Shown here one piece after another: positions 1-59,023 of a stretch of DNA of 64,000 nucleotides. The position numbers were made by a program, and so were the translations under genes. Positions within the stretch are counted from its first letter, which is position 1. The number at the start of each line of letters is the position of its first letter. Location of the stretch: contig CM119269.1 in NCBI GenBank assembly GCA_051294375.1, positions 12,990,790-13,054,789 on the forward strand, given 5' to 3'. The notes beneath the pieces are model-generated. The model was not told the DNA's origin, did no database searches, and worked only from the letters and a program-made list of their open reading frames with translations. The DNA is from Paraspadella gotoi (lineage: Eukaryota; Animalia; Chaetognatha).

Positions 1-3000
1 AGTTATCTCAGAAAAGTGCAGAGTTCAAGAAGTACAAGGTTCTCTCCCTTTACCTACATTAGCCTCTACTTTTCACCCAATTGCAGATCTGGGGTACGCG
101 ATAGCGATCCCAGGATGCAGGCGCTAAGAAAGTCATTGGCGGAGACGGAAGGAGGTAAGGTCAGCGCCGCCGATCAGGCCGCGCGGGACGACGTCGCGAG
201 ACAGATGGAGGAACTGAGAAAGTAAGTATCGCTTAGAGAGATTGATAATGATCGCTTCGTCTCAACCGCTCATTGGTTGGTTTCTTTAAACCAATCAGAA
301 TGGGCGTCCGCGATAGCGATCCACGAATGCAGCAATTGCTGAAAGAGGACGAGCGATTGGCTGATAAGATGTTGGAAGAAGCGAAAAAAGTAAGTCGTTT
401 TTGACGTTGAATAATGAATATCTCTTTTTTCAACTTGAAATCGGTACAGTTTCCAGTTTTTTAAGTGATTGTGTTAAACGAATTAAAACTAGTTTGAGCA
501 AACAATGCCGGATCTGCCCACGATCATTAGCGTGCAGCTGATCACACAAGGTCTTAATAATTTATTAATTAATATATTAAATAATTAATTAATAAATTAA
601 ATAATTAATTAATTAATATTAATTTTTTTATTCTCGTTCAAATCTTTTTTCCACTTTGCCTCGACCACAAAACAACAATATCGATTACAAAATTATAAAT
701 TATAAAAATAATAAATTAATTAATTACAAAATAATTAATTAATGACTAATTTATTAATAATCTACGGACGGACGGACAACATTTTATTTTGCATAATTTA
801 TCATAATTCGATATTCTAAGATGATGTAAGTAACTTACCAACAAGATTTGGCGGTGGGACCGACGGACCGAAAAGGTGGATTATAGACCGGAATCTGCTG
901 TAAGCAGATCCGGCTAAATTATACCTGAGATTCTAACACGCATATCGCTCTTCCATGCCTCTAAAGCAATAAATCTTACGTGAAGGTAAAATCGTGATAA
1001 GTTGAAAATACCATATTCATAAGTCTAGAAAGATTACATACAGAAATTCTAAAAGTCAATTATGAACAACATACGCATCAGGTGAAACATTTAATGTTGT
1101 AAAAAAAAATTAATTTTGTTTTAATTTTCGCATAGCCTATATTTATATATAGTACTATCCTTATAAAATCGAAAAATTTCAAAATGGGTTTCTTAATTTT
1201 TGATTGCAGATGTGAATTCCTCGTCAAAGTTGATTTAGAAGAAAATATAAATCATTTTAAAAATTCTTTCACTTAAAGTGAGTTAAAAATTTAAAAAAAC
1301 TATTATTTTAATATATAAAAAATTAATTTCAGCTTTAAAAATAGCTTTTTCTAATTTTTGACCCACTTAATGAAGAATTTTTCAAAAAGAGTATATGTCT
1401 TTTTATCAAACTTTTTTATGACAAATCCAAATCTGCCTAAAAAATTTAGAAAAAACTGTTTTGAAATTTTAACATTTATGGTTTAGTACTATGTATTAAA
1501 ATATGGCTCTACTGCGCATACAAATTGTTAAAATTTATTATAAATTTTTTTTAGCATAAAATGTTCTATACAGTATAGGTGTTCGTCCTCACTTTTGAAT
1601 TTTAATTTAAAGTTAATAACTTTAGGAATTTTACTACGCCGTTAATATTCCATGATATGAATTAAATTAAGTAGTAAAACTCATGATAAGATCATCAAAA
1701 TTTTATATTCTGCTTTTTAGGCCTTAGTATTCTCCGAACCTTGATCAGTCATGTTCATGTCATTTGTCATCTTCAGACGGGACTCCGCGACGAAGATTCA
1801 AGCAATGAAAGATCTTCGAGTCGCCGTCGGGGAGAAAGCACGAACGTCAGGCCAAGCTTGACAAGGAGTTGGAATGAGAGAGAGATAGAGAGAGACAGAG
1901 AGAGAGAGGAGAGAGAGAGAGACAAGAGAAGAAGAGAGAGGAGAAGAGGAGTAGAGAAGAGAGAGGAGAGAGGGTCATGAGGAAAGGGATGAGAGATAGA
2001 GGGAGAGAGATGAAGCTGTAGGAGACGGTAGTATAGAGAGAGAGAGAAACCATGATGACAAAATGGATCAAATTAGCCTTTCTGTCTTTTTCTTTCTTCT
2101 CTTTATTTCTCTCCTCTCTTTTTTTTTCTCGCCACCAGGAGGCGCGCGCCCGCGGGGACGAGGCGGCCGTCAAGCGTCTCCTCGAGGAGAGCGGCCGCGG
2201 CGATGAGGCGATGACGCGACGAACCTCCGACATCAAACGCAGCGTCGCCGGCGCAGCAGACACGGCAGCGCTGGTTACCAAAACCTCGGCGCAGCTGGAA
2301 AAGGAATTGAAGTACGATGAAGCCATTGATTTAATTTTTAAATCATTTATTTTATTTGTTTATTTATTTATTAATTTATTTATATTTCGAATGCGACACC
2401 TTTTCTGGCGTTTAAGCTTACCACTTCCCTCTTTCAACTTTCCGCTTCCTCGTATCTCGCTTCCCATTTTTCAATCCCCTCACTTCCCCCCTTACCCAAT
2501 CCCCCAAATCCGTTTCCTCTTCCCCCGAATCCCCTCACTTCCCCTAACCAATCCCCCAAATCCGTCCCCCTTCCCCCGAATCCCCTCACTTCTCCCCTTA
2601 CCCAATCCCCCAAATCCATCCCCCCTTCCCCCGAATCCCTTCACTTTCCCCTTTACCCAATCCCCCAAATCCGTCCCCCCTTCCCCTGAATCCCCTCACT
2701 TCCCCCCTTACCCAATTCCGCCCCCTTCCCCTGAATCCCCTCACTTCCCCCTTACCCAATCCCCAAAATCGTCCCCCTTCCCCAAATCCCCTCACTTCTC
2801 CCCTACCGAATCCCCCAAATCCATCCCCCCTCCCCCAATCCCCTCACTTCCCCCCTTACCCAATTCCCCAAATCCGTCCCCCCTTCCCTCGAATCCCCTC
2901 ACTTCCCCCCTTACCCAATGCCCAAATCCATCCCCCTTCTCCCGAATCCCCACTTCCCCCCTTACCCAATTCCCCAAATCCGTCCCCCCGAATCCCCTCA

Positions 3001-3647
3001 CTTCCCCTAACCCAATCCCCCAAATCCATCCCCCCTTCCCCCGAATCCCCTCACTTCCCCCCTTTACCCAATCCCTCAAATCCGTCTCCCGTTCCCCCGA
3101 ATCCCCTCAATTCCCCCTTACCCAATCCCCCCTTCCCGAACCCTCCTCACTTCCCCGCTTCCCTTCCAGAGACCTCGGTCTCTCCGACGCGGAGATTCAA
3201 CGTCGTCTCGAGGAGAATCGAGAAAGAAGATCACAAGCGGAGGCGGACATGAGGGCGGCGAAGAAGGCGGGATCGATTCAGGTCCAACGTTTTACTCTAA
3301 TCTTTAACAACGACTGATTGTAATGAAATTATAATTTCACTAAACCGTTTCTTTAATCTCAAACACAACGAAACGAAAGAAAAATGAACAATGTCTACTA
3401 TTAACCTCTATATTTCCAGCCAGAACCCCAGAGTGTGTCAAAATATTTTGAAAATATATTAGCTCAAGATGAGTGTAAATTGAGATATTAAAACTAGATT
3501 ATGAACGAAAATCCTAGAAAGTGCGAATAAAAAAAATGACTGACCGACCATGGTTTGTTCAGATGGAAGACGCGTTGGCCAAGGGCGCGGCGGCGGGGAT
3601 GGACGACTCGAAGGCAGCGGCGGAGGTCTCCAAGGATTTGGCCAGGT

Positions 3648-3724
<77 letters not shown>

Positions 3725-4368
3725 GTGACACGTAAAGAAGCGAACTATATTTTTCCTACTCAGATTTTGAAAAAGTACGGAGACGTCTCCAAGGATCAGA
3801 TCGAGTTGATTCAAACTCTCTACTTCTCTCGAACCAAAACCGTCAAGCATTTGTTGGACGATCTCAAGAAGAAGGGAAAGAGTTCTGACGAAATCCTCGG
3901 TAAATATGGAGAAGACGATTGCTGAAGATATTAGAACAAGATCGGTTCATCCAATGTGTTGCAGGGAAAGTGACTTTATTTCTCGTGACATGACATGACT
4001 ACAATAACTTTCTTAACCTGTGTGTATTTATGACACGCACTGCATTGGAATTTTGTCTTTTATTCTTTATAGTTTTAGAATTTCCTGAAGGCGGCGCGAG
4101 CAGTCCTTTAGATTTTTTTCATATGTGCATTTTTAACGTAATTGGGACAGACCGACAGACCGACCGAAAAGTGACTTATAGAGTTGCTCCGCGAATACTC
4201 GCGGCGCAACTAAGAAGAAATCATTCCACGCGGTCATTGAGAGAGTGAGAGAGAGTTTTCAACAAAAGACAGTTGAAGGTAACGTCAGGTGAAATTGAGT
4301 GAGAGAGAAAAAAGAAATGAAACATTCATAACAGGCTCGAGGTCTTCAGCCTTCTAACTCTCGGTTTG

Positions 4369-4427
<59 letters not shown>

Positions 4428-5612
4428 GCAGGCCCAGCCGAAGACGTTTATCAGGCTCAACAAGAGAGAGACACAAATCTCAAGATGGCCGTCCGAACCG
4501 TCAATCGTGGAGACGATCAGATCTTCGAGGTGGTCGACTCCTACAAGTCGGTTGGTTTGGAGGAAATCCGAGAGAGAGAGAGTAGAAGAGAGAGGAGAGA
4601 AGAGAGATATGAGAGAAGAGAGAGAGATAGAGAGAGAGAGAATGCCGACGTTAATCACGACCAAAAAAGGTTTGACGAATTCCGACGGAGAGCTGGCGAC
4701 GGCCGAGAGCGGCCAGCTGCCGACGGCAAAGAACAAGGGAGAGGAAAAGTTGAAGAATATCATGAAGAAGACGACGACGTCGGCGGCGACGAGCTATTGG
4801 AAGGGCGCCGACAAGGGCGGACTCAAGGACGAGAAGTATCTGGATAGAATCGTCGCGGATCTGCCCTACAAGGACGCCGAGGCGAAAAAGGGTGGGAAGA
4901 TTTGCTTTTTAAAACGCACGTAGAATCGATGGAATAGTGAAATTAAACTTAAAATTTTATTTAAATTTAAATTTAGACAATACAATTTTTGTTAAATTAA
5001 ATTAGGTTAAGTTTGATCAAATTTAAACAAGACGAAATGAGATGATTTTTGTTAAGTTAAATTAGGTTAAGTTTGATCAAATTTAAACAAGACTGAACGA
5101 GATGATTTTTGATAAATTAAATTAAGTTAAATAAAATTTACACCCAATGAAATAAGATGCTTTTTGTTTAATTAAATCAATGATTAATTTAATTTAAGTC
5201 TTAATGATATGATTTCTATTTTTTGCAGACGTGAAGGAGGCGACGAACATGGACAACATCACGTGTCTCTTCGAAGCGATCAAAGAATTCAGGAGTCGCG
5301 GTCTCGAGGTGACGATAAAATTGGTCGCCCGGTTCTTTTTCTTGTCACTTTACGTATAGAAATGAATGAAAGAAAACGAGACAGAACTCCGCGGTTGATT
5401 CTTCCTGAAATACTCCCAGACTGTTAGTTATAAATCTGTACATCTTAGTGAGTTATTAATGTTTAATAAAATTTAACTAAATTTATCAGGATAAATTTAG
5501 GTACGAAACGAACTTAATTATTGATGAATAATTGTTGATAATTGTTGATAATTATTGATGAATAACAAATATCTTGCTCTTCAAGGCAGTTTGTAGAACG
5601 TGTCCCAATTTT

Positions 5613-5693
<81 letters not shown>

Positions 5694-8600
5694 CTTCTCT
5701 TCTTCTCTCTCTCTTCCCCACAAGGACGAGAGCCTCATCCTCGACGCAGAGATGAAGCTCATCCTCCTCGTCGCCTACAAACATAAGAAGTTGCCCTACA
5801 ACAAGCGAGAGCTCGAGGGTCACTTCAGGCGCCTGCACAAGAACGCCCTCATCGGGTTCACGGCGCCCGGGGACGCCACCGCCGACGCCAAGTCCGCCCT
5901 CGAGAGCGCCAAAGCTGCCAAGGCGGCGGCGACGAAGGACATTCAGGCGAAGATCGGAAACGCGGCGTCGCTTTCAATGGACGACCTGGAAAAGGTTGAA
6001 AGGGGGCGTGGCGGATGATTAGTAGAGTTATCCGAATTTGTAAAGCTATTGCGTTTTAAAATTATTCGGAGAATTACACAATGTCGAAGAATAGTTAAAA
6101 TTATTTCGTTAATTATTTAACGAGGCAAACCTTACCGACCCTCTAACGGGTCGATTGGCGAAAAAGCAAATTAGCATTGTTTCATTTACATTAGTTTTCT
6201 TTTGGATTATGATAATTAAAATTGATAATTATAGAAGTTTAAAAATAACAATAAAAAGTAATGAAACTTAAATGCTTTGAGGATATTTTCGGCCGTGCGC
6301 TCGTTATCATTAACTCGTTTCCTCTTTTAACTAGTCGTGTTAATATATTTTATAATAATATGAGTAATCGTTATTCCATTTCACGCCTTTATTCATGGAA
6401 TCCTCCAGGTCATCGAATCGTTCCACATGGAAGGCCTCAGCGCCGGCTCTGACGGAGACCTCTACAAAGCAGAGAAGGAGCTCCTGCAAAAGACCATCAA
6501 AACAGATCCTAATAAACTGAGGAAGAACCTCAGACTCGTCTCCTTCAACGGACTCAAGGTGAGTCATTGCTCTTTTGTTGATCCCGGTTCCATTCGTTTG
6601 AATGGGTTCATCGCTGCGTAGATGGCGCTGCCAGAATTGGATCAGAGCTACCCGGAAATCAACGAGGAGATGAAGGAGAAGGAGAGGTTGAAGGCCGAAT
6701 GCATCAAGGAGCTTCAGCGGGGAATTAAAGAAAAAAACTTGGACGTCCTGCAGGTCACTGCTGCTGCGGCTCCTGCAGATATTTGTCACGGTCATGTAGA
6801 GTTTGCCGTGTCGATTGCAGTGCAATCATCATTTGAGCAAGAAACTCGGTCTCGAAGAGAGCACGGATCCAATCGGCAACGCCAATAAAATGATTTTCGA
6901 GCTGCTGAACGGAGACGCCAAGGGCAAAGGTAGATCGAGGAAAATTTATGTTGTTGTTGTTGTTGTTGTTGATTCAATCCGATCGTCACAATACTCTACT
7001 ATTCAAATACATTACAAATTTCTAAGGGGGCGGGGACATGGATTTGTCGCGTTTCAGCAAAATGAGCATCGGAAGTTTGGAGCAATTGTTGGAATCGTTT
7101 AAGAAAAATGGTTTGGGAGACGATCACCCCGCAGTGAAGGTTCGTCCATTTTCGATTGACTTTTGTTTTTGGAGAACTATTGTTTTGTTATTACTTGCGA
7201 CAGGCGGCGAGAAAAGCTTTGGAAGATCAACGTCGCGCCAAAGAAGAAGCGAAAAAGGAACTGGAAAGAGCTATTGCATCGGGGGTATGAAAGAAAGAAA
7301 GAAAGAAAGAAATAAAGAAATAAAGAAAAAGAAAGAAAAAGAGAAAGACAAATAAAGTAAAATATTAAAACAGAACTGAGCACAAAAAGAATGTTATCCC
7401 CCCAACGCTTGCAAGGATGTCGACGCAATCAAAAAAGCGATGGACAAGCTGAAGACGACGGGCGGCTTGGACGACAACGAGACCAACATGTTGCTCGACG
7501 GGATGAAGACGTTGGAGAAGAATGTCAAAGAGGAGAGCAAAAGATCTCTGAGCGAGGGCATCGACAAGGCTGGAGCATGTCAGTGCTTTCCCGTTAATGC
7601 ACTTAAGCCTTAATTTAATCGATCCCTTACTTTGAAAAAAATTGAATCGTTTCTCTTTTGTGTGTTTATGTTTTAACTTCGTTATTATCTCTCATTTTAT
7701 ATTTCATTCAAAAGAAAAAAACCAAAGTCAGGTGCTATGGTGGACTAAAATCCACCAACCGTTCATCAGCGGCCATTGGTGCCGGAGGCAAGTCGTTCGC
7801 CTCCCGCCCCGGGGGTCCGGGGTTCTAGCCCGGTGGTCGTCTGGCAGTTTGAGAGGGACGGGGCGCTTGACCCGCCTGTGGCATGGTGTTGCGGCCTGGT
7901 CCGAGGCTCGGGACTGCTTATATTGAACGGTTCTGTCACTATAACTGTGAGAGAGTCTTGATTGAAAGCTTGCAGGGACCTGCTATGACATTATCTTGTA
8001 AGAGTGATGGAGGCGTTAAACCACCAAAGCCTGTCCAAAGTCAGGGGCAAGATAGCTTATTTATTAAATGAATGGATAATTTTTATATTGGTTGTACCAA
8101 TTTCATAAAATTTCAGCTCCTTGTATTTTGATGCTAGTGCGGAGTACAATAAGTATTCCCCGATCTAATACTTAAGGAGTGGTCTTTTTATACAATTGAA
8201 ACATTCTTTGAAATATTTTCCACTTCATTGATAGGGAAGCCAGGTACTCTGGGAGTGAATAAACGAGACTGTGAGAGAGTCTTGATTGAAAGCTTGCAGG
8301 GACCTGCTATGACATTATCTTGTAAGAGTGATGGAGGCCTTAAACCACCAAAGCCTGTCCAAAGTCAGGGCAAGATAGCTTATTTATTAAATGAATGGAT
8401 AATTTTTATATTGGTTGTACCAATTTCATAAAATTCAGCTCCTTGTATTTTGATGCTAGTGCGGAGTACAATAAGTATTCCCGATCTAATACTTAAGGGA
8501 GTGGTCTTTTCATACAATTGAAACATTCTTTGAAATATTTTCCACTTCATTGATAGGGAAGCCAGGTACTCTGGGAGTGAATAAACGAGACTGTGAGAGA

Positions 8601-11600
8601 GTCTTGATTGAAGCTTGCAGGGACCTGCTATGACATTATCTTGTAAGAGTGATGGAGGCCTTAAACCACCAAAGCCTGTCCAAAGTCAGGGGCAAGATAG
8701 CTTATTTATTAAATGAATGGATAATTTTTATATTGGTTGTACCAATTTCATAAAATTCAGCTCCTTGTATTTTGATGCTAGTGCGAGTACAATAAGTATT
8801 CCCCGATCTAATACTTAAGGGAGTGGTCTTTTCATACAATTGAAACATTCTTTGAAATATTTTCCACTTCATTGATAGGGAAGCCAGGTACTCTGGGAGT
8901 GAATAAACGAGACTGTGAGAGAGTCTTGATTGAAAGCTTGCAGGGACCTGCTATGACATTATCTTGTAAGAGTGATGGAGGCCTTAAACCACCAAAGCCT
9001 GTCCAAAGTCAGGGGCAAGATAGCTTATTTATTAAATGAATGGATAATTTTTATATTGGTTGTACCAATTTCAATAATAATAATTACTGTCTCTTCATTG
9101 GTGAGCCCGACTTCCGAACACAACAGCAACAACAAAACTCTCAGGCGACATGCCTCAACCTGGCGATGCACTTTCCGCCCACAACACATCAGGCGACATG
9201 CCTCAACTTGGTGACGAACTTTCCACAACAACAACAATTCACTGAAGAGACGCAACAGACTTCTCCCTACGGAGGGGGGGATGTATGGTGGACTAAAATC
9301 CACAACCCGTCATCAGCGGCCATTGGTGCCGGAGGCAAGTCGTTCGCCTCCCGGCCCGGGGGTCCGGGGTTCTAACCCGGTGGTCGTCTGGCAGTTGAGA
9401 GGGACGGGGCGCTTGACCTGCCTGTGGCATGGTGTTGCGGCCTGGTCCGAGGCTCGGGACTGCTTATATTGAACGGTTCTGTCACTATAACATAATAATA
9501 ATTACTGTCTCTTCAGTGCCGTATTTTTTGCATAACAAAAGTGAATCATTAAATAAAATAATAATGATAATTTTATTTTTAGATGATGATGATGATGATC
9601 CAGAATTAAAAGCTGTTATGAAAAAACGTTTAATAACACTCACGTTAAAAAATATCGAGAAAATTTTTAAACAAAGAAACAAAATCCTGAAATATAATCA
9701 CTTATTGATGCCCCACTTTGATCTCCTTTACAGCCGCTGGCAAAAAAGCCGTGGATGACCTGGAGAAATTCGGGCTCGACAAAGACGGGGAGGTTTTGAA
9801 GAGCGGCGGAGAGGCGGTCAAGGGGCAGCAGTCGAAGGAAGACGCGGCGCGGAAGCGGCTGGAAGATGCGCTGAGGAAGGGAAACGACAGGGAGATACTA
9901 GAGGCTTTGAAGGTCCGACTTATGTATTCCCGTGTAAAGTGTAAAGTATTCGGTACACAAAAACTAAGTACGATCATATTTTATCGGTATTCACTTCCAG
10001 GCTGCACGAGGTGTGCTTCCCGACGATGATCCGCTCATGAAGAGGGCCGAGCAGCACCTCGTCCAGGCGGCTCTCAAGGATGACAAGCTCATGAACGACG
10101 TTAGTTCATATTATAATTATTAACAAGAAGTTTCTATTGGTACAACCAATAAAAATTATCCATTCATTTAATAAATAAGCTATCTTGCCCCTGACTTTGG
10201 ACAGGCTTTGTGGTTTAAGGCCTCCATCACTCTTACAAGATAATATGACATAGCAGGTCCCTGCAAGTTTCAATCAAGACTTTTTCACAGCTCGTTTATT
10301 CACCTCCAGAGTACCTGGCTTCCCTATCAATGAAGTGGAAAATATTTCAAAGAATTTCAATTGTATAAAGAACCACTAACCTAAAACTAACACCTAGACC
10401 ATTAACACCTAAAAAATATATTAATGTATTAAGTGAAAATTCTCTCTTTCCTCTCTCTCGTCTTCTCTACATCTCTCTCTTTCTCTTCTCTCTCTCTCTC
10501 TTCTTCATCTTCTCTCTCCTCAGCTGAAAAACGTGATCGGACGCCAAGCTATGGAGGAGGCTATCGCGGATATGGAAAAGTCGGGGGCGGACCCGGCAAC
10601 GATCGCAAAGGCCAAAGCCAATTTGGCCGATATGGAGTCACGTGACGCCAAGCTTAAGAAGGAATTGGAGGTGAAGCGTGCCGGTCGACTTCGACAGCGC
10701 CGTTGACCTTTTTTATTTAAAAATTGTAAATCTGAAACGGAATTGTGAGCAATTGAAACATTTTTTGTTTTTTTTTATCTTTTGTTTTTGACGACAGGCG
10801 GCGCTCGAGTCGGGCGACCCGAAGAGAATACAGGCGGCGCTGGAGAAAGCCAAGGCCGCGGGCCTGATGAACGACGATCCGGCCCTGATTCAGAAGGCGG
10901 AACACTTTCTTCTCAGGCGCGTTGAGTGAAACTTAGCCTTTACTTACCTTTAGTTTGGGTTCTAAATCCAAATACTAAATTAGGATGAGCTATGTATTAA
11001 TTTATTTACCTCCAAGTGCATCCGTAATCCGTATTACAGGGCGGACCCCAAGGCCGCTAAGGAGAATCTGAAGAAATCCTCCGTGGAGGCGGCGGAGGGA
11101 TACATGACAGGCAAACCTGGCGCGACGAAGGAAGTGGCCGCGCTCAAGGAGAGAGATGAAATGCTGAAGAAGAAGTTGGAACAGGCTTTGGCCTCGGGTG
11201 CGAAGCGCTGTGTTGGCACACATTTCTATGAATTATTTTCTATAATTTTACTCTTAATTTTAAAAATTTATATTGATATCAGGGAGAGAGTCGCTGATCC
11301 GTCAAGCCTTGCTCGAGTGTAAAGAGGCCGGACTCACGGACAAAGACTTGGGCGGACTCATGACAAAGGCTGAGAAGCAACTCGTGAAAGGTCCGCACAA
11401 CAAATCGGACAAGGTCATGGCCACCTTCGAACTTATGTCCGAAGACGCGCTGGCGAAAAAAATCCAAGAGTTGAAGGAATCGGGTAATTTTGGGTTTCTT
11501 GTCGTGACACGAACTTAATAGTTAATAAGACGCTTTTTGGTCTTACTATTCATAGATTTATTTTTTTTTTAAATAAATTTAAAAATAAAAAGGAATTCCG

Positions 11601-35185: not shown

Positions 35186-38100
35186 ATGGGCGACGATCCC
35201 CACATCGTCGTCGGCGCCGCCGAACTTCGGCAGCAGCTGCTGCATGTTCGCACTGAGCTCGACGCGGAGCGCGCTGCGGCCACCGAGTTTCGACGCCGGG
35301 TCACCCACGGGGACAAGGAGAAGCTTACCCTCGTCTCGAACCACAATGAGGAAATGGCGTCGTTGCGTCACCGCGCGGCGGCGGCGGAAGCGGCGCTGGA
35401 AAACTGTAACGCCGCAAAGTGCGAGACGGAGTGTGAATTGTTGGCGGCCGTCAAACGCGTTGCTGGATTGGCTAAAACAATCGAGGATAAGGAAGTTAGT
35501 CTTTTTTGGGAGTCGGACTTTTTCTTTTGTTAGTTTTTGGTTTTTTAAATTGGAATTTTTGTCAGGCTTCTCACGCAGAAGAACGCGAGTCCTTTCGCTC
35601 TCAAGTTGAAGATTTGCGTCGACGTCTTTCCAAGTCTGAGGATGAAGGCGCGAAATTCACTTTTGCCGCCGAAAAGAAAGAGTCGGCCCTCTCTGGTGCG
35701 ATACTCGCCAAGGAGCAGGAGTTGGATCGTGTTCGCAAGGAGCTCGAGCTCACGCAGGTGTTCAGTCTTAACTAAAAACGTGCAGATAATCGTTTACGTA
35801 CGTATTTATGAAAATTATGTGTACTACGATACGACTAAGACTTCAAACAAATTTAGAAAGTCAAATATATTTTACATATTAAATTTATAGTTTCATTTAA
35901 TATAGTTATATTTTGTGTATTTTACTGTTTAATTCCTCCGTTTTGAATTTCCCAGATCGCGAAATCGGAATTGGAGAAACTGTCGGACACGAGAGAGAAG
36001 CAGATCGTTGAGTTGGAGCGGAAGGCCGCCGAGTTAGATTCGGAATTAGGAAGACGAACGGACGAGGCCAAGCTGCAGAGGTCCGAGTCAGATTGGATGC
36101 TGCAGAAAGAGAAGCAAACCAAGCAGGTTTGTCAGTTGTGCATGGAGTGATCTTTATCTTTTGTTTACCAGTTTTTGTTCTATTGCAATATTTTAATTCA
36201 TCGTAGGAACTCGAAGCGTTGGTGGAAAAGGCTAAAGGCCTTGAGGCAAACGTCGAATCGGAACGCGCGGCTCATCTCGAAACGAAGTTCAACTCTGAGA
36301 TCGTGCAGCTTCGCCTTCGCGACGTGGAGGCAGCGCTCGAGGATGCGAAAGCCTCCAGCGCCTCCAAAGACGCCGCGTTGGCTGATCTTCGCGCTAAACT
36401 CGATGCCGCCGGCGATTCTCTGCGCGAGGAGAAGAAATCGGGCTTCAAGTCGACGAACCGATTGAAGGCGACGTCGGCGGAACTGGCTGACGCTCAGAGG
36501 CACGTCTCTCAGCAGGAACAACTCGTCGATGAACTCTCCAAGGAGATCGACGCTCACCAGAAACACTTCGCCGTTTTGAAGGAGGAGCTGGAGAAAACGA
36601 AAGCCAATCAGCGTCGCTTGGAAGGCAATTACTCCACCTGGCTCAAAGACCTCGAGATCACCGTCTACAACTATTGGCACACCCTTAAACAACGACAGTT
36701 TCACGAGGATTATCCCCCTTCCCCGCCCTCTTCGTCATCTCCTTCGCCCAAGTCGCTCGTCGAGGGTCTTAAAGTTCTTCTCGGTGAATACCTCGTTCAC
36801 CTTCAAGATTCAAAGGCATCTTCCGAGAACATGTTTCGTAAGGACTCGAAAATCACGGAGCTGCAACAGACGCTAGGTCGTCTCGAGTACGAACTCGAGC
36901 AGCGGAGTCGCAAGATCGTAGAAGCAGCTGCCGAAGCTGATCGCCGCGTCGATGAGCGGGAAGCCCTCGCCGCGTCCCTCGAGGCCGAAAGAGCAGAGAG
37001 AGCGAGGATCGAGGGTGACAATGGAGACATTCTCGAGGCTCGAAGAGTCGCCGACGAGGAGAAGGTGGCATTTCTCGGCGCCACTCTCGCCAAACTCTCG
37101 GCGATGATACCGAATTCAACCTCCTTGTCGGATTTTAACGACGAAGCCCCCGAGGCTGGCAGACTATTAGAAAGCGTCGCCACTGTGGATAAGTCTTGGA
37201 ATCGATTGACAGCGGTGACGACGGAATACGTGGCAAAGGTGACCTCTTTCGGCCTAATTTGTTACAGATTGAAAGCTTTGTTTTGAAAAATGAACTGAAG
37301 TAATATAAAAATTAATTCTATTTAATAGATAAACTATCTTGCCCCTTATTTTTGGCAAGCTACTATGGATTAAGGCCTCAATTCCTCTTACTTATTAATA
37401 TAACTACGTACGTATTATATTTTCACGCAGTTGGGACTCGTCCTGAAGGCACTCAAAAAGAAAGCGCGAGTCTGTGAAGACGAAATGAGAAACGCCGAGG
37501 AGGGGCGAAAACAAATGGCCGAGGCTCAAGAGGAGACGTTGCATCAAATGGCCGAAGCCGCCGCTGCAGTCGAAGCCAAAGCTCTTGAAGAGAAGCGTCA
37601 GTTGGAAGACCATTTTGGGGAGGCTCTGCAAAAGGTGCCTTGAAGAAAAAGGAGCTTGAGAATGTTTTTTGTATTTTCAAGAATTTCCCATCGACTCTAG
37701 GTCCACGATCGCGCGAAACTAAGTGACGCCGAAGCGCAAGACGCTCTCGATCGACTCCGGACGGCAGAGGCTTCTCTTCAAAAATGCTCCGCCGAGATCC
37801 GCCTGTTGAAGAGCGAATCCAATCGCCTGCTAACGGATCGCACCAGTTTGACGGCCGCTTGCGCTCTCCTTGCCGGCGTTCTTCTTTCTCAAACGACGCG
37901 CAGATGCGTGGAGTCGCGCCATCGTTTAGCCGAAGAGATGAACGCTCAGGCGACGACTTTTCGACGCCACTGCATAGTCTTGGTCGAAACGCTCAGTTCT
38001 GAATTCCCGTCGGGCGACGAAGACGAAACCTTGCCCAAGATCCGTCGGGGTTTCGGCGCTCTCCTCGCATTTCGTCGCGCCGCCATCGTTATAATCGCCG

Positions 38101-40077: not shown

Positions 40078-43000
40078 ATGTGTTCAATTCGTAAGATTAT
40101 AACGCTGCTTCCAAACTCTTTAACATTGGACCGAAATTTAACTTTGGCTGCCAGGACGTTATGGCCGCTGGAAAGGAGCTTATTTCGCAGCTCCAGCGGC
40201 TCTGCAGCACCAGCCGTCGTCGACCCTCCCCCACGTCCGAAAGAAACTCACGAATTCCCTTTAGAACGAATTCGGAACTTTAGCATCATCGCTCACGTGG
40301 ACCATGGAAAAAGCACCCTGGCCGACCGCATCCTCGAAAGTGTCGGCGCAATTAAAAAACCTACACAGGGCAAGAACGAGCAGGTCCTAGACAAACTGCA
40401 GGTGGAACGAGAGCGAGGAATCACCGTTAAGTCACAGACGGTGAGCTTTCGTTACCAGCACGAGGGCCTCACTTATCAGATTAATCTTATAGACACTCCC
40501 GGGCACGCCGACTTTAACTACGAGGTTTCGCGGTCGCTAGCCGCCTGTCAGGGCTGCATCCTTTTAGTAGACGCTAATTCTGGCATCCAGGCGCAAACCA
40601 GTGAGTTTTACTCGTGTATTTAATCACAAATATATACATATTTAATTCTCATATCGGTCCGCCTCGCCACGAAATGCCCTTTTGTTCGCGCTAGTCGATA
40701 GATCACGCGTTTATCAGAGTCAGAAAAACGAACAAAATAACATCGAAAAATGAAAAAAAGAAAATCCAGGGGGAAGCCGTCACGTGACCGGCCTCGACCA
40801 ATGGGAGCCCGGCATCCACCGAAGCCGGTTCTCTCCCTCATCCGGGAAACTGAGATCATCAATTCTTTTTTCGCGCTCATCTAGTTCGGTTGTATCCTTT
40901 CTGATTTCGCGTTTTTTCTTGACTTTTTCACGATTTTCTCGTATATCTACGTTCGAAACCCGCTCATTAGAAGTCAAGCAGAGACGAACGTTCGGACAGG
41001 AAGTCTGACAGCCGAAAACGTTCGGACATGTCTCTAAACGTAGAGAGGGACTGGAGATCCCTCGGGGGCTGAGAGGTCCAAGGGAGACCGAGCGGTCTCG
41101 CCCCCGCCGCCACCTGCCCCACCGACACCGCCTTCTCCCCCTTTTACCGGGTTTTCGGCAGCCCGATTCCGTCGGTTTTGGGGACTCGGCCCTACCAACC
41201 GACAATTTCCGTTGCCCGGCCGAGCGGTGGGGCTTCGTCCGAGGCGCCCTCTCTCGCTGCTCTCGGACCAAGTGGCGGCCGGTCTGGTCATCCCCACTGC
41301 CGGATGACGAGACCAGAGGACTGGAGTCTGTCCTTCGACGATGGTTTCGCACTGAACAGCTTTAGGAAGGATTTCGACGATTTTCGCCGCGAGTCTCAGC
41401 GGCGTTTCGACGCTTTGGGGCGGTGAGTTTTTTCCCGCCAGATGGCGTAGTGGGGGTTTTAGCTCGTTTTTCAAAGCCTCGCCTCCCTCTTTTGTTTCTC
41501 CTTTATTTCTTTCTTTCTTTTTTCGAATTATTCGATTTTGGATTTTTAGAATTTTTATTTCGTCTGATTCGATCGAAATATTTTTGTTGAAATAACCGCT
41601 TTCCTCCGCCTCTTGGCATGGGGCATTTCGTGGCGAGGCGGACCGATATGAGAATTTTTAATTCCTTTATGGAATATTAATTCTATATCGGTCCGCCTCG
41701 CCACGATCCCACCGTCCGCCCCTTTTTGTCTCCTACCATGTTTTTTCGTGGCTTTGGCGTGGCTTAGGGAAAGGGGGTTGGGGAGAAGGGAGGGGGGGGG
41801 TTCGGGAGTTTTTCCGTTTAATTCTCGCGCTAATTTGTTTACCGCTTCGTTTTTTTAATGTGACGATTCATATCGGTCCGGTTTTTCTCTCCACTACGCT
41901 TCGCCTCGTTTGACGAGTCTCGAATTCCTTCCATGCTGTTCCGACTCCAGTAGGCGGCCCCCTCTCAGATCGGGCGCCCGCCTCGGACCGTCACAGGTCT
42001 CGCCTCTACCCAAGCGTCATCGATCCCACACAGTGCCGGATCCGGACGCCAAGTACTCCTCCGATTCGGCGGAGGAGGGAGAAGTTTCGTCTTCGGATGA
42101 CGACTCGGCGGTTTTCGACGCTTCCTGCCCACGAGCAGGTCGCGCCGGTTCCAGGTTCGTACATGTGGCGTTCTCTTCGCTGCGTTGGGGAAGGGGTCTT
42201 CCTCACGGCCAACTGGAACTCGCTGGGACGCCCGGCGATCGGCAGTATACGCCACTGGATCGACGTCGCTTCTCCTCCGGAGTTCACCGCTCCGACGCGG
42301 ACACGTGCCTCTCCGCTCAATTCGAGTCGGCGTTTTCCAAGGGAATAAGCGGCTACTCTCCGCTCCTTTTCACGTGCGATGCAGGAGAACGGCGCTACGC
42401 GCATGCCATCCTTACAGTTGTCGATGAGCTGCGCGGAATCAAGGAGGCTCTCCGTTCCGGCTCGTCCAGAAATGAGGTCAGCGCTAGCGTTGAGCCCTTG
42501 CCGCCCCGCTTCGCGACGCGGCTCTTATTCAAGCGGCGTCCCTCAACCTTTCAGTCGGCGAGATCCGCCGCCAAGTCCCGCTGTGGCGCCGCAGGATCTC
42601 CGCGCCACGCTTTCTCGCTCCGCGCCCACCGCATCTTCCTTTTTTGGTATTCAGGAAGCGCAGGTGGAGTCGGCGCTCAACTCGACGCTTATACAAAACA
42701 TCGCTCGCGCCTAACCCGCTGCCGACAAGCGCCCTCGTTTCCGCTCGTAGTCTTCCTTCAAGCGCAAGTGGACCAAGAAGTCTGTTCCCCGCAAGAAGTC
42801 GGGAGACGGGAAGGGCCGGGACTCGCATCCCGGCGAATGACTCGAAACGCCTCCCTCGCGGTCGCCGCCTCGTCCGACCGCCCAGGTTTTAGGCCTGGAT
42901 CCGCCCATGGACTCGAGTCTCGACACGGACCTTTCCACGCCGGCGCTTCTTCCGGAAGTCCCCGTCGGAGGTCGGCTTCGTCTCCTTCAACCCTTTTGGA

Positions 43001-46000
43001 CGACGTTCGTTGGCGAGACGTCGCCCATTCTCGATAACTTCTCGGGATTCCGCCTCGAGGGGGCGAAGCAGTTTCCAGCACGCTTCCATCTTCCCTCGGA
43101 CGAGACACCGTCCTTTGGGGACCGAGACGCCTTGGTCGACGCAGAGATTGCGGCGGCTTTGGGGGAGGACGCCATCGAGGTAGTCCCGGTTTCTCCGGGT
43201 TTCTTTTCCATGTTTTTCCTCGTTACGAAGAAAGATGGAGGCTGGCGCCCGATTTTGAACTTTAAAAAGCTCAACTCTCGTTTCCTTTCGCCGCCTTATT
43301 TCCGGATGGAAGGAGCCCCGGACGTACGAAGGATGTTTCGACGAGGCGATTGGGGTGCCTCGGTAGACCTTCGAGATGCTTCTCCTTCTCCCGATCCACG
43401 AGGATCATCGGAAATTTTGCCGCTTCTTTTGGAAGGGCCGCATCTTCCAGTACAGAGTCCTTCCATTCGACCTCTCGACGGGTCCTTGGCTTTTCACCAA
43501 GACGACGAGGCTCTTAGTGCAGTGGCTCCGCCCACAGGGGATTCGATGTCTTTTTTTATTTAGACGACATCTTGATCCTGGTTTCCTCGGCGGACGATTG
43601 TCGACGAGCCACTCGGAAGGCGGTGTGGCTACTCAAGGAGGCGGGGTTCATCATCCACCTTCAGAAGTCGAGCCTGTCTCCCTCTCAGAGTTTCGATTTT
43701 CTCGGTTTGGTTTGGGACAGCCTCTCCCACTCCATCGCGCTCCCGGAGACGAAAATTACGGCTCTTCACTCTCTCGCGGAGAATCTTTTGCCAACGACCG
43801 CACCACGTGCTCGTCAGTGCCTTCAGCTTTTAGGCCTTTCGACGGCGGCGTCCATGGCAGTACCGCTGCTGCGCTGCCGGCCCTCGAGGATTCAACGAGA
43901 CGTCAATCGTGTCTACAGGTCGGAGAAGGATCTCGACCGTGTTGTTCCTCTCCACTCGCCGGCGATGGAGGAGCTGCGGTGGATCGCAGCCCTCTCTCCA
44001 GACCAGTGCTTCGCTCTGATCGACGACCTCCTCCCGGAGGTCTGCACGCTGGAGGGGACGACGGATGCTTCGTCGCAGGGATGAGGGCTTCTCCATCAGG
44101 GCCAACTGTCGGGGAGAACCTGGTCGACTGCGGATGCCCCTCTCCTTATCAATGTGAGGGAGTTCACAGTTCTGAGGATCTTCCTCCAACGATTCGGAGC
44201 TTCCTTCCACGGCGCGTCCATCCTTTGGAAGACGGACAGCCTCGTCTCTCTCACCTGCCTTCGTCGGGGCTGCAGCAGGAGTCCGTCTCTCTTCGGAGGA
44301 GAATCTCATCACGGCCGCAGCGTCGAGGGGCCGCAAGGTGGCGGACTGGAAACTCCTTCCGAGAGTTTTCCACCAGATGGTCGACATTTTTGGTCTCCCC
44401 AGCATCGATCTTTTCGCGACTCCCTGGTCGGCTCAAGTTCCACGTTTTTTCGCCTGGGAGGCGACGCTGGAGGCGGAGGGGATAGACGCCTTGGCGTAAC
44501 GCTGGGTCTTCGACCTGGCCTATCTCTTCCTCCCCCTCCTCTGCTGATGATGGTGATCCGCATGTGGGAGAAGGCGAGGGGCACCTTCCTCCTGATCACC
44601 CCGTTTTGGCCGGCTCAGAAGTGGTTCCAGAGCCTCCTCCTTCGGATTCTGGATGCGAGGCGCTTCCGGCGCCGAAGATCCTCGTTGTCGACCTCGTGTC
44701 CGGGCTTCCGCCACCGCAAGCGGATCGCTTCAGGCTCGTCGTCTGGAGGATTTTAGGCGGTGCCACAATCTCTCCGACATCGACGACTCCACCTTCTCTG
44801 TCATCGTCGACAGCCGGAGAGGCTCTACCAGAGAGCGCTACGCCAGAGCTTGGAGCTCCTTCTGCGACTTCCTTCAGGATAGAGAGGTTCGAGGATCTCA
44901 AGCCTCTCTAGAGGATGTTCTACGATATCTCGGTTTTCTGTGCGAGAAGGGCCTCTCGTACAGCAGATCAACCTTCACAGATCGGCCATCTCAGCTCTCT
45001 CCCCCCCTGGCGGGAGCGCCGGTTGGAGAGCATCTTTGGTCCGGCGCCTTCTCAAGGAGTTTTCGAGAGACGCCCTCCCTCACGTCGGACTTTCCCCACT
45101 TGGAATGCGGCCTCGGTTTTACGCATTCTCGACTCGGGCGCCACTTCCGATCGCGCCGAGGGATCTTCTACGGCACGCTCGCTCTTTCTCGTCGCTTTAG
45201 CGTCGCTCGTCGCCCTTCAGAGATCTCTCTCTTCGTTGCGACGCGGGTATCTTTCCTTAGCGGCAGATCACGTTCGTCTGGTTCCATCGACCTCTCAAGA
45301 CGGACAGGGTTGGACACATGGGTCCGGCGTTCCGTCTCGATTCGCTGCCGCTCTCAGATGTTGCCCGGTTCAGGCGCTGCGCAATTGGCTCTCTTCGTTC
45401 GGAATTGGCGCCGCCGCACGATTTTCTTTTCTGCACCCCGCGCCGCCTTTTCGTCAACTCTCGACGCAGCGTTTCGCCTCCATTCTCAAGGAGCTCTTTT
45501 TGGAGGCAGATGTTTCTGCGCCCCCGGGGTCGACACGCGCTATGGCGGTTTCAGAAGCCTTCGCTCGCGGCGTGGATCTCGGCGTCATCTAGCGCGCGGA
45601 GATTGGTCTGGAGCGCAGACCTTCTTCCTTTCTACTGCAGGGACGTCGCGTGGGCGCCCCTCCGGGACCTTCTAGGGACAATTGATGATCTCAGTTTCCC
45701 GGATGAGGGAGAGACCGGCTTCGGTGGATGCCGGGCTCCCATTGGTCGAGGGCCGGTCACGTGACGGCTTCCCCCTGGATTTTCTTTTTTTCATTTTTCG
45801 ATTTTTTTTTGTTCGTTTTTTCTGACCTGATAAACGCGCGATCTATCGACTAGCGCGAACAAAAGGGCATTTCGTGGCGAGGCGGACGATATAGAATTAA
45901 TATTTCCATAAAGGAATTAAAAATTCTTAACATAATGTAGATTGTTTTCCATTTCTTTTTTTTTTTCTGCGCTTTCCCCACCTCCGCCAGTGAACAACTT

Positions 46001-55302: not shown

Positions 55303-58300
55303 GCTGGTGTATGCGATGACATTAATTAAAGTTTCCTCATTAAAATTCCCTCATTTTAGGTCCAAAAGACTTCCAAGGTCTACCGCAAGTTGTCGGATGT
55401 GCTGGGTCTTCAGGACGAGTCGATGGTGTTATCCGTCATTGTGCAGAAGATCATCACCAACCTTAAGTTTTGGGCCTCGAGCGAGGCGATCATCGGAAAA
55501 ACGCTGCAGCTGCTCAACGATCTCTCCGTCGGGTTCGTTTTTTTTTTTTTTTTGCTTATTGAAAATGGTTTTCTAACTGATGGGTCGGTCCAGTGTGAGT
55601 ATGAGTATTGAGTAAAGACAAAGGAAATAAAGGGCAATAAAAGTAAATTCACCGAGAGGCAGCTCTCGAGCTGAAGTAAAACCCAAGACAGAACTCAAAT
55701 TTCTCGCTTTTTTGCATCTTCTTCTGTCGTCTCTCGATGAGGAGGAAGGGGAAGGGAGGAAAAGAGGCGGAAGAGGAAGAAGAAAAAGTGTCGCGATCGT
55801 TAATGGAGAAGAGAAATGGGGAGTCCGATGGAATTTACTCATCCTTCTATCTGTTTTTTTAGGTATTCCTCGGTGAGAAAGTTGATCAAACTGGACGCGG
55901 TGCAACTGATGCTTAATCATCACACCAGCGATAATTTTCCGTTTCTCGGATTCGCGCCGGCGCCCGGCACCGTCGTGCTGCAGGTACGAATGGATGTTTC
56001 TACGCGGAGCGTTTAGTCAAGGGCAAGAGTGATCTCCTTCTTTTCAAACTGAAATTACTAAACGCTGAACCCTCTCGTAAAAATACCGAAAAATATGTTA
56101 GGGGTTCTCCCCTGATGGTTGGGGGAGTTCGTTCCTGACAAATATGAATGTCGCCCCAGGACATGCGATGCCGCACGACTTTTTACACGGCCTTGGGTCG
56201 GTTGCTCATGGTGGACTTGGGCGAAGACGAGGAGCGATTCGAAGCCTTCATGTCTCCCTTGACGGCGGCCTTCGACGCCATCGGCGGAGTCATGTCTGCC
56301 AAGTCCGACTTGGAACTCGTCGGCAATGTGGAGGTGAGACACGACAACCAGAAAACTTTAAACTTGCAATTTGAAGCATTCGCATCGAATTCGATTACGG
56401 TTTTGTTTTTTGTTTTTGTTTTTGTTGTTGTTTATTTTTTCGTTGTCGTCGCGTCAACCACTACATAGTATGAGGAAGGAACTTTTGATGCAATCAAGAA
56501 TGAGATTGTGTTCATCAATCTCATTTGCATATTGTATTGACATTTACTTGTCTCACTCCGTCTCTCTGCTGGAGGGGGGGTTTCATGTGAAACCACAGGT
56601 GGGCGATGTCGATGGGCGCCGGTCTGTTTTCTAATTCAATCTGTGATCCGTAAAAACCCTCTTCTCTTCATTTTCCTTTTTATTCACCAACTTCATCCTC
56701 CCGACAGGTGAAGCGAGCCTTGATCGGCCTCGCCCGCGACCTCCGCGGCGTCGCCTTCGCCTTCAACACTAAGACGTCGTACATGATGCTTTTCGAGTGG
56801 CTCTACCCGACCTACACGCCGATCCTCCTGCGCGCCGTCTCGGTTTGGTTCGCCGACCCCACGGTCACCACTCCGGTGCTCAAGCTCATGGCCGAATTGG
56901 TAAAATGAAACTCCGCTCTGCGTTTTTGATCCAATGAATAAACGATGGACGCCATTTTGCTCATCCTTTCCCTCGTTTGCAGGTTCAGAACCGGAGTCAA
57001 AGGCTGCAATTCGACGTCTCCTCTCCCAACGGATTTCTTCTCTTCCGCGAGACGTCGAAGATGATGGTGACCTACGGATCGAGAATCCTCACCGTCTCCG
57101 ACAGCAACATCCCCAAGGAGTCCTTGTACAGCCACAAGCTCAAGGTAGGTGTCTCCGAGTTTCTCAACTTTTTCCGAGAACGAACTTACCTCGAACCGTA
57201 TCGTTTCATTTTCACACAGGGAGTCTCCATCTGCTTCAATATGCTGAAGCACGCCCTATGCGGATCCTACGTTAATTTTGGAGTTTTCCGTCTCTACGGC
57301 GACAATGCACTAGACGACACCTTCGGGACCTTCGTCAAGCTCTTGTTGTCCATCGCTCAGGTTTGTGTTGTTGGAATGCCAGAATTTTTGTTATAAAAGG
57401 GAAAGAAATAATCTTCCCATTCTCCTATAATTTTATTCCGTGCAGAGCGATCTGTTGGATTACCCCAAACTCAGTCAAACCTACTATGCCCTTCTCGAGT
57501 GCCTTGCACAGGACCACATGGTGTTCCTGGCCAGTCTGGAACCTCGTGTTTTCCTCTACATCCTGGCCACGATCTCCGAAGGTCTTGCCTCAATCGACAC
57601 CATGGTCTCCACGGGATGCTGCGCGACGCTCGACCACATCATCACCTTCTTCTTCAAGCGGCTGACGAAGACTAAAAAGTCGTCAAGCGGCGGTGGCGGC
57701 GGCGGCGAGAATCCCCAGTCGGAATCCTTCCTCAAAATACTGGAGATGCATCCTGAAATCCTTCAACAAATGCTGTCCACCGTGCTCAACATCATCATGT
57801 TCGAGGACTGCCGGAATCAGTGGTCCATGTCCAGGCCATTGTTGGGTAAAAAGTTTAAACCGAATTTTTTAAAAATATTTTGCGGTTCTAAATCTTCCCT
57901 TCTTTTCATACCCAGGTTTGGTCCTTCTAAACGAGAAATACTTCAACGAGCTACGACAACAAATAATCAACAGTCAGCCCAGTGATAAACAGTCTTCGAT
58001 GGCTCAATGCTTCGAGAGCCTCATGGACGGGATCGAGCGAAATCTTCTCACAAAAAACCGGGATCGATTCACGCAGAACCTCTCCGTCTTCAGGTCTCGA
58101 GAAACAGGGGGGAGGGGATCGGAAGAGTGTCAGGAATTTTCAGTTTTAATCCCTGCTAATTATCCTTTCTTTTTCGTTGTTTGAGAGATTAACAAAGTTT
58201 GATTTTATTTTTGCAACGAATTTTATTTTACAAGAGCAGACATGTTTCTGCTCACAATACGAGCCTTCATCAGCGCATATGAGTTGTGAACTTGATACAA

Positions 58301-58310
58301 GTTTTTAGTT

Positions 58311-58371
<61 letters not shown>

Positions 58372-59023
58372 TAAAGGTTTCCAACAAAGAATTGAGTAAG
58401 GACAGTGATCAGTTTTAATCCCAAAGAAATAAGTCGAGACATGTCGAAACGAACGCGTAGATTTTTAAAAATCCTTAGCCATTCTAATATTTTTCCCCAT
58501 TTATATTTGTTATATATTATGAAATTGGTACAACCAATATAAAAATTATCCATTCATTTAATAAATAAGCTATCTTGCCCCTGACTTTGGACAGGCTTTG
58601 GTGGTTTAAGGCCGCCATCACTCTTACAAGATAATGACATAGCAGGTCCCTGCAAGCTTTCAATCAAGACTCTCTCACAGTCTCGTTTATTCACTCCCAG
58701 AGTACCTGGCTTCCCTATCAATGAAGTGGAAAATATTTCAAAGAATGTTTCAATTGTATGAAAAGACCACTCCTTAAGTATTAGATCGGGGAATACTTAT
58801 TGTACTCCGCACTAGCATCATTATTATTATATATATCATTATTATATATGTTTGTTATAAAATATTCGATTTCATTATTTTTTTTCTTTCGTGCAGACGC
58901 GACGTGAACGATTCGCTGAAGTCGTCCTCGACCGGTCAGACGGGAATCAACGGCTGCGTCTCTTTGTCCGCGGGCGGCGACGGTGACTCCCTGGTCGTCG
59001 CTTCCGGAGACATGATGAGTTGA
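52724..59023 (+). CDS. XPO7: Exportin-7, multi-exon
   Basis: [68 protein letters not shown]-terminal DMMS. Confidence 0.97.
58236..58276 (-). ncRNA. Minimal type-I hammerhead ribozyme (Penelope-type, palindromic stem III)
   Basis: Minus strand GCG-CUGAUGA-AG-GCUC-GUAUUGU-GAGC-A-GAAA-CAUG-UC^-UGC. Confidence 0.75.
58520..58820 (-). mobile_element. Family A dispersed monomer with twister (58571-58633) in the last XPO7 intron
   Basis: Reverse complement of the array unit, flanked by TTA on both sides; T1 strand is UGGC instead of UGGA. Confidence 0.88.

Follow-up and report, generated by a model that had tools for sequence, protein, structure and literature searches.

The 64,000-nt window analyzed here is a stretch of the genome of the chaetognath Paraspadella gotoi (GenBank assembly GCA_051294375.1, contig CM119269.1, positions 12,990,790 to 13,054,789). 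Within it, bases 7944–9073 form a tandem array of a protein-free 322-bp repeat, and comparison of the sequence with known twister ribozymes confirmed that each unit carries a real twister core in P5 order, for which self-cleavage is predicted. We consider it probable that the repeat family is a non-autonomous retroelement, i.e., a twister retrozyme, which would cut only when adjacent units pair and which would be copied by a Penelope-like element. Folding predicts that two ribozymes in adjacent units share one P1 helix and would thereby form a double twister.

Tandem Repeats Finder delimits the array to bases 7944–9073 with a period of 322, 3.5 head-to-tail copies and 98% matches, and no long reading frame lies inside. 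This bears out the first-pass annotation, which had described a tandem non-coding repeat of about 322 bp at 7946–9073. The units differ mainly by single-base insertions and deletions in runs and by one substitution in the motif of unit 1. The predicted U/A cleavage steps follow bases 8017, 8341, 8662 and 8985, which results in spacings of 324, 321 and 323 nt. The array is composed as follows:

7944–9073, plus strand: tandem array of 3.5 units of about 322 bp, 37% G+C, without a reading frame of at least 105 codons
7992–8054, plus strand: Twister-P5-like motif of unit 1, P1 palindrome broken (8011–8016), predicted to be poorly active, predicted cut after 8017
8316–8377, plus strand: Twister-P5-like motif of unit 2, P1 palindrome 8335–8340, predicted cut after 8341
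8637–8699, plus strand: Twister-P5-like motif of unit 3, P1 palindrome 8656–8661, predicted cut after 8662
8960–9022, plus strand: Twister-P5-like motif of unit 4, P1 palindrome 8979–8984, predicted cut after 8985
8342–8662, plus strand: predicted monomer of 321 nt, putatively released, a branched rod with 70% paired as circle
8663–8985, plus strand: predicted monomer of 323 nt, putatively released, 69% paired as circle
8986–9073, plus strand: 3′ tail of the array, 88 nt, from the last predicted cut to the fixed 3′ end of the family, the putative start of reverse transcription

The annotation had also given a single string that each unit was said to read. The motif is present in four of four units, but unit 1 reads GGCGU instead of GGCCU, and in unit 2 one G is missing between P4 and P5. 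Likewise, the positions and sizes of the three predicted monomers of 321–324 nt were reproduced, but two monomers are a likelier product than three, because the palindrome of unit 1 is broken.

The assignment to the twister family is supported by several lines of evidence. In all four units Rfam ranks Twister-P5 first, with 25.8 bits for three of them and 22.6 bits for unit 1 (E values 0.011–0.071). The covariance-model check proposed in the first-pass annotation thus identified the expected family as the best in every unit, but at scores of 22.6–25.8 bits compared to the gathering threshold of 37.6 bits for RF02684; the Rfam alignment of the units drops the P1 hairpin. At gathering thresholds an Rfam scan of the whole window returned no match, and no hammerhead was matched in the units up to an E value of 10. 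Matches to tRNA-Sec and rli48 were at chance level and were rejected. A twister descriptor, composed post hoc with the motif already known, finds five places in the window (the four units and a copy at 10.2 kb), one of 20,000 shuffled units and none of 60 shuffled windows.

Pairings were compared with twisters of Schistosoma mansoni and of phages and bacteria. The units contain the N/AA step in L1 and the general-base G followed by A; the catalytic G and A, A+2, both pseudoknots and P4 are intact. T1 comprises three to four pairs and T2 two pairs in all four units, the P4 hairpin has 4 bp with the conserved AA, and the open P5 stem has 8 bp. The UAA cleavage site, the GA, P4 and both pseudoknot pairings claimed previously therefore stand for every unit. 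P2, which had been named as the weak point, turned out to be a minor concern, because natural twisters sharing this core can also have P2 strands of 3 nt and because P2 imperfections are tolerated in assays. Assays of about 2,600 twisters showed that an imperfect P1, P2 or P4 is tolerated, unlike imperfections in the pseudoknots and the catalytic bases (PMC11662667). Furthermore, the core variants listed for DNA run X1 reach at most 2.4%, except for an unpaired P2 position at 6.7%, compared to 2–24% outside the core (among the 40 of 169 variants listed).

The same core was found in phage and bacterial twisters. Search patterns built from the 5′ half of the window’s motif only (UAA, T2, C-NNN-G, L4) gave 106 viral matches, 74 of them distinct. 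A GAUGG strand lies downstream in 10 of the 15 distinct matches with a full P4 versus 3 of the 59 without (Fisher p 1e-6), and the matches having both are type-P1 twisters with the window’s core. In an alignment of seven phage twisters P1 and P2 covary, with 96% of the cells paired (0/500 shuffles) and with all five P1 and all four P2 pairs changed on both sides; three of ten phage sequences (L067, L083 and L127), misaligned by MAFFT, were dropped from this count, and the set was chosen after the full P4 had been seen, so that P4 was selected for. P2 strands of 3 nt are likewise found in L067 and L083, and in L067 they show the mismatch-or-bulge pattern of the window. In the phage and bacterial relatives P1 starts directly after GAUGG and stops just before U(-1). 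The nearest core is that of L165 from a Bacteroidales contig, the only one of 16 matches in a genome scan with a full P4. It is arranged in P5 order, its P2 comprises 3 bp and its P1 is a hairpin of 6 bp; its score of 42.3 bits is above gathering. With this type-P5 twister (RF02684) the array has in common the N/AA step, GA, T1, T2, C-NNN-G, P4 with its AA loop and the open P5, including the core letters and a 3-bp P2. It differs by a 6-nt palindrome instead of a P1 hairpin, by the mismatch or bulge in P2 and by a score under gathering. As a side observation, L046/L135, L067, L083, L091, L093, L109, L113, L127, L136, L153 and L165 represent a phage and bacterial twister subtype with AC/GU in T2 and CCA/UGG in T1; the type-P1 members of this subtype that were tested are far under the Rfam gathering threshold or unreported by Rfam. 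Two viral scans for P5 order gave 0 and 24 matches, none of which joins T1, T2 and P4 in this order, and L046, a candidate for P5 order, was rejected as it proved to be a P1-order twister. The model R1 ranks the six intact copies first, which is no independent support since its members were found with the window’s own letters.

Taken together, these data make it very unlikely that the motif is a dead relic or a chance likeness in an ordinary dispersed or satellite repeat. Such a relic would be in line with the Rfam score under gathering, with the weak P2 and with the JGI (Joint Genome Institute) metagenomes, in which the family pattern had no match and a looser pattern four matches, none with the pairings. 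However, the descriptor matched only once in 20,000 shuffles, none of 28 letter-only pattern matches joins T1, T2 and P4, the core is that of a bacterial twister above gathering, and core variants are rarer than variants outside the core among those listed. A type-P5 twister in every unit, as proposed by the first-pass annotation, is therefore supported, with Rfam agreeing on the family, though under its threshold.

Next to the core, the P1 slot is the most unusual part of the motif. A P1 hairpin closed inside the motif is absent; instead, the slot holds exactly AGGCCU in units 2–4, a perfect 6-nt palindrome for which a hairpin is impossible. Perfect 6-nt palindromes are found at 5 of the 322 positions of the unit. 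On P1 the first-pass annotation was silent: it does not form inside one unit and is predicted to form between units. In unconstrained folds of two adjacent sites the inter-unit P1 has a probability of 0.93–0.94 and P4 of 0.72–0.92 in two of three dimers, with both P4 and both P5 formed. The dimer that includes the broken palindrome of unit 1 fails (inter-unit P1 probability 0.03). When the whole array is folded, the three intact slots share the pairing (0.37, 0.17 and 0.44) and unit 1 is excluded. In the monomer circles P4 is left unformed, its pairing having a probability of 0.06, and single-unit and circular folds do not form P5-P2 or P4 together. Moreover, an old copy at 37.3 kb with 78% identity keeps the palindrome intact and shows paired changes in T1 and T2.

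Each twister might also cut alone without P1 in an otherwise retrozyme-like retroelement, the palindrome being incidental. Assays found P1 dispensable and P1 imperfections harmless across the about 2,600 twisters tested (PMC11662667), so that a dimer may not be required and monomer activity stays a rival; the slot could be bridged by one A-U pair with GGCC as its loop. This is unlikely in our view, given that the folds of single units and circles do not bring P5-P2 or P4 together and that the palindrome fits the slot exactly and persists in the 78% copy. For the switch between adjacent units there is a model in other ribozymes. Double hammerheads in Penelope pseudo-long-terminal repeats (pLTRs) were reportedly described by Lunse et al. 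in 2017. Tandem hammerheads with a palindromic helix III cut in multimers and not in monomer circles (PMC4209133). The double hammerheads of newt, viroid RNAs and Penelope pLTRs are like the array in that a short palindromic helix is stable only between tandem copies. They differ in that this helix is the hammerhead helix III instead of the twister P1, and in that both the cutting of multimers and the silence of the monomer circles are only predicted for the array.

The unit as a whole resembles the non-LTR (long terminal repeat) retrozymes. These were described as protein-free tandem repeats of 150–450 bp with G+C below 50%, a type I hammerhead per unit and a monomer that is about 70% self-paired (PMC7229834). 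The array has a tandem unit of 322 bp, 37% G+C, no protein, a highly self-paired monomer and dispersed copies, and it lacks the type I hammerhead. Folding of the plus strand beats that of shuffled sequences (z -2.67 linear, -2.05 circular) and folding of the minus strand does not (z -0.21 and -0.17). The monomer circles are 69–70% paired, and two of 100 shuffles are as stable. As to the twister-based equivalent of retrozymes that had been suggested, the anatomy is thus supported but the hammerhead of the current definition is missing; the element would work like a non-LTR retrozyme without being a member as defined. Compared with metazoan non-LTR retrozymes (Cervera and de la Pena, 2020, PMC7229834; Li et al., 2026, bioRxiv 10.64898/2026.07.22.740005), it has in common the protein-free low-G+C tandem unit of 150–450 bp with a ribozyme per unit, the self-paired monomer, the dispersed monomers and short arrays, and the proposed dependence on Penelope-like elements (PLEs). 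In contrast, both papers define these elements by the hammerhead, and circular RNA was demonstrated there and is predicted for the array.

Further copies of the family, on which the first-pass annotation was silent, give insight into its mobility. Three more copies are found in the window, with 3′ ends near one point and varied 5′ starts, all three antisense to their host genes (by eye for the intron at 37 kb). The array itself is in sense orientation in a 2.1-kb intron and could be supplied with a multimeric transcript from there. The features concerned are the following:

7579–9733, plus strand: GT-AG host intron of the array in an uncharacterised gene, array in sense, flanking exons join in frame
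7736–9520 (7736–7945 and 9074–9520), strand not assigned: second, unrelated repeat around the array, which is inserted at an AT-rich site
10136–10377, minus strand: 5′-truncated copy, about 93% identical, antisense in the next intron of the array’s host gene
37302–37391, minus strand: old copy with 78% identity, in which the palindrome, UAA and the 3′ strand of P5 persist and the general-base G has become A
58514–58820, minus strand: near-full monomer of 307 bp, 98%, antisense to an exportin-7-like gene within one of its introns, palindrome altered at its first base

The exportin-7-like frame has a horseshoe crab protein as best named match (81%). The same intron contains a further high-depth repeat at 58141–58434, split by an (AG)n run.

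Contigs of two DNA runs of the same organism, X1 and X5, leave the element at 58517–58519 into unlike AT-rich flanks, 605 in X1 and 364 in X5. This exit point is 89–91 nt past the predicted cut. Runs of three other organisms (B, C and D) yielded two to three shallow contigs each and were left out of the analysis. From the fixed 3′ end to the far 5′ end of the unit the summed contig depth drops about twelvefold in both runs, these depths being rough and not copy numbers; most copies are shorter than one unit according to the contig data, and 38 X1 contigs run beyond 58820 into unit sequence. The 3′ end of the array lies 88 nt beyond the last predicted cut, and the array interrupts the second repeat at an AT-rich site, with no target duplication at this insertion. 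With the fixed 3′ end of the family and an arbitrary 5′ start at one clean site it is as expected of one insertion event. Because the fixed end does not coincide with the cut site, a cut linear monomer is an unlikely template, and a circle or multimer with internal priming fits.

These features, i.e., 5′ truncation, partial tandems, a fixed internal 3′ end and AT-rich targets, are marks of Penelope mobilisation. For the Penelope-like Poseidon element PAc, reverse transcription starts 111–118 nt into the frame used, in which the hammerhead cuts at 26, corresponding to 85–92 nt past the cut, and targets are AT-rich (PMC11167929). PAc thus has 5′ truncation, partial tandems, AT-rich targets and a fixed end located about 90 nt beyond the cut of its ribozyme in common with the array family. 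Unlike Penelope-like elements, the family has no reading frame, and no autonomous element linked to it by sequence was found in the window. As a mechanism, read-through transcription, here from the host intron, would first yield a multimer, in which neighbouring palindromes would form a shared 6-bp P1 and two active sites cutting at U/A. A monomer of 321–323 nt would be released and may circularise with its ribozyme folded off. A Penelope-like reverse transcriptase would then start about 90 nt past the cut site on the circular or multimeric template, producing truncated monomers or, on running further, partial tandems.

A different kind of retroelement appears most improbable. In the S. mansoni Perere-3 elements the twister sits at the 5′ end of a LINE (long interspersed element) of the RTE type, and the unit might accordingly be such a LINE or its SINE (short interspersed element). 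This explanation would suit the role that has been published for twisters in retrotransposons, where they are placed at the 5′ end of RTE LINEs (PMC8501958; PMC7761336); twisters are also known in viroid-like circles. Here, however, the copies reach well upstream of the cut and their 5′ ends vary, and the contig data suggest that these do not cluster at the cut site. The fixed end is on the 3′ side, the array has no target duplication and P1 is not derived from flanking DNA. The Perere-3 T-variants are like the array as twisters of an animal retroelement with an atypical P1, but there the twister is at the 5′ end with the target duplication supplying P1 (PMC8501958), and in the array it is near the 3′ end of a tandem unit.

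Several observations, next to the Rfam scores and the dispensability of P1, weigh against a twister retrozyme that cuts between paired units. Two of them come from run X9, which is an RNA run as judged from splicing (a contig connects 58090 with 58894, and some stretches of the intron are without cover) and which has 1,576 contigs on the stretch of the exportin-7 intron, the majority on the repeat. Its cover falls toward the 5′ end at least as steeply as that of the DNA (3% of peak compared to 8–9%), and 102 of its contigs enter unlike flanks at the fixed end. The 3′-biased profile and the unlike flanks agree with read-through transcription of truncated copies more than with an abundant circle, contigs being a poor measure that cannot show circles. 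P2 has two sound pairs plus a mismatch or bulge instead of four perfect base pairs, and its catalytic register lies +2.3 kcal/mol over the free dimer fold, with pseudoknots uncounted. Evidence for covariation inside the family comes from a single decayed copy, whose catalytic G is lost. Among the window’s 125 frames none matched a GIY-YIG family, and no autonomous partner was found within the window. Finally, only one of nine predicted Xenopus hammerhead retrozyme dimers cleaved in vitro (bioRxiv 10.64898/2026.07.22.740005).

Part of this evidence would also be explained if the unit had derived by deletion from an autonomous Penelope-like element, or were its terminal repeat, and were copied from linear RNA, the array arising by local tandem amplification with no circular RNA. 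Copies are mostly shorter than one unit, X9 has no circle signal, and insertion of PAc in vitro needs no hammerhead cleavage (PMC11167929). Hammerhead retrozymes were argued to derive from PLE ends, having been proposed to arise from inserted ends via local amplification (bioRxiv 10.64898/2026.07.22.740005). We regard this as unlikely because the array has the fixed 3′ end, arbitrary 5′ start and single clean insertion site of one insertion event, because the whole unit folds on one strand only and because 38 X1 contigs pass 58820 into unit sequence. A non-autonomous twister retrozyme copied by a Penelope-like element therefore stays the reading that we prefer.

The Penelope-like lineage concerned might be related to Naiad. 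Naiad PLEs were reported to be without canonical hammerheads (PMC8557442), and the word twister is absent from the text and supplement of this paper. P5-order twister-like motifs are present in the 3′ non-coding ends of two of the 54 Naiad consensus sequences listed, Naiad-1_Movir and Naiad-4_Chem (PMC8557442, File S5), as found by exact-string searches of the supplement, which are not exhaustive, and as judged by eye. These motifs have a P5 of 10 and 6 bp, respectively, a 4-bp P2, T1, T2 and P4, with letters differing between them; the P1 slot holds two palindromes in both. Both elements are cnidarian and the motifs are unannotated. As in the array unit, the motif is in the 3′ end, but spacing and slot differ. 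Weighing further against a direct connection, about 226 and 439 nt separate the motifs from the 3′ ends of the consensus sequences, their slot is longer and their T1 letters are different, and Naiad-4_Chem additionally carries the annotation ‘HHR_core’. The distances and the T1 difference make the Naiad motifs a precedent and not a parentage. In its most specific form, in which the array is a natural double twister that releases a 322-nt circular RNA and is a passenger of a Penelope-like lineage, possibly Naiad, in which the hammerhead was swapped for a twister, the interpretation is tentative and falls somewhat short of even chances. No twister retrozyme or double twister was found in the literature searched, a coverage in which subscription journals are mostly not included.

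Other features of the window were noted. The host gene of the array, at about 2000–11500, has many exons and encodes a repetitive helical protein, for which no Pfam match was found in the frames scanned. The second repeat around the array (7736–7945 and 9074–9520) has 13-bp inverted ends (9241–9518) resembling a miniature inverted-repeat transposable element. Compared to the majority in X9 it differs mainly by G for A, with 42 of 129 changed places on the stretch, a pattern that could stem from a copy of RNA edited from adenosine to inosine. Bases 41859–45764, inside a GUF1-like GTPase gene, contain a decayed retroelement with a reverse-transcriptase match and, by eye, a tyrosine-recombinase-like part, which we take to indicate the DIRS type. 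A C-rich 55-bp minisatellite of about 12 copies is located at 2473–3131.

As a summary, retrozymes have been defined and searched by their hammerhead, so that those based on a twister would be overlooked, and a twister without P1 scores under the Rfam cut-off. If the interpretation is true, an unrelated ribozyme would have reached the same switch as the hammerhead, cutting the multimer and sparing the circle, and retrozymes would represent a strategy that is independent of the ribozyme used. The ‘hammerhead-less’ Naiads would have a ribozyme after all, a candidate answer to their missing canonical hammerheads. For the host, the sense orientation of the array in its intron means that an active dimer would cut the host pre-mRNA.

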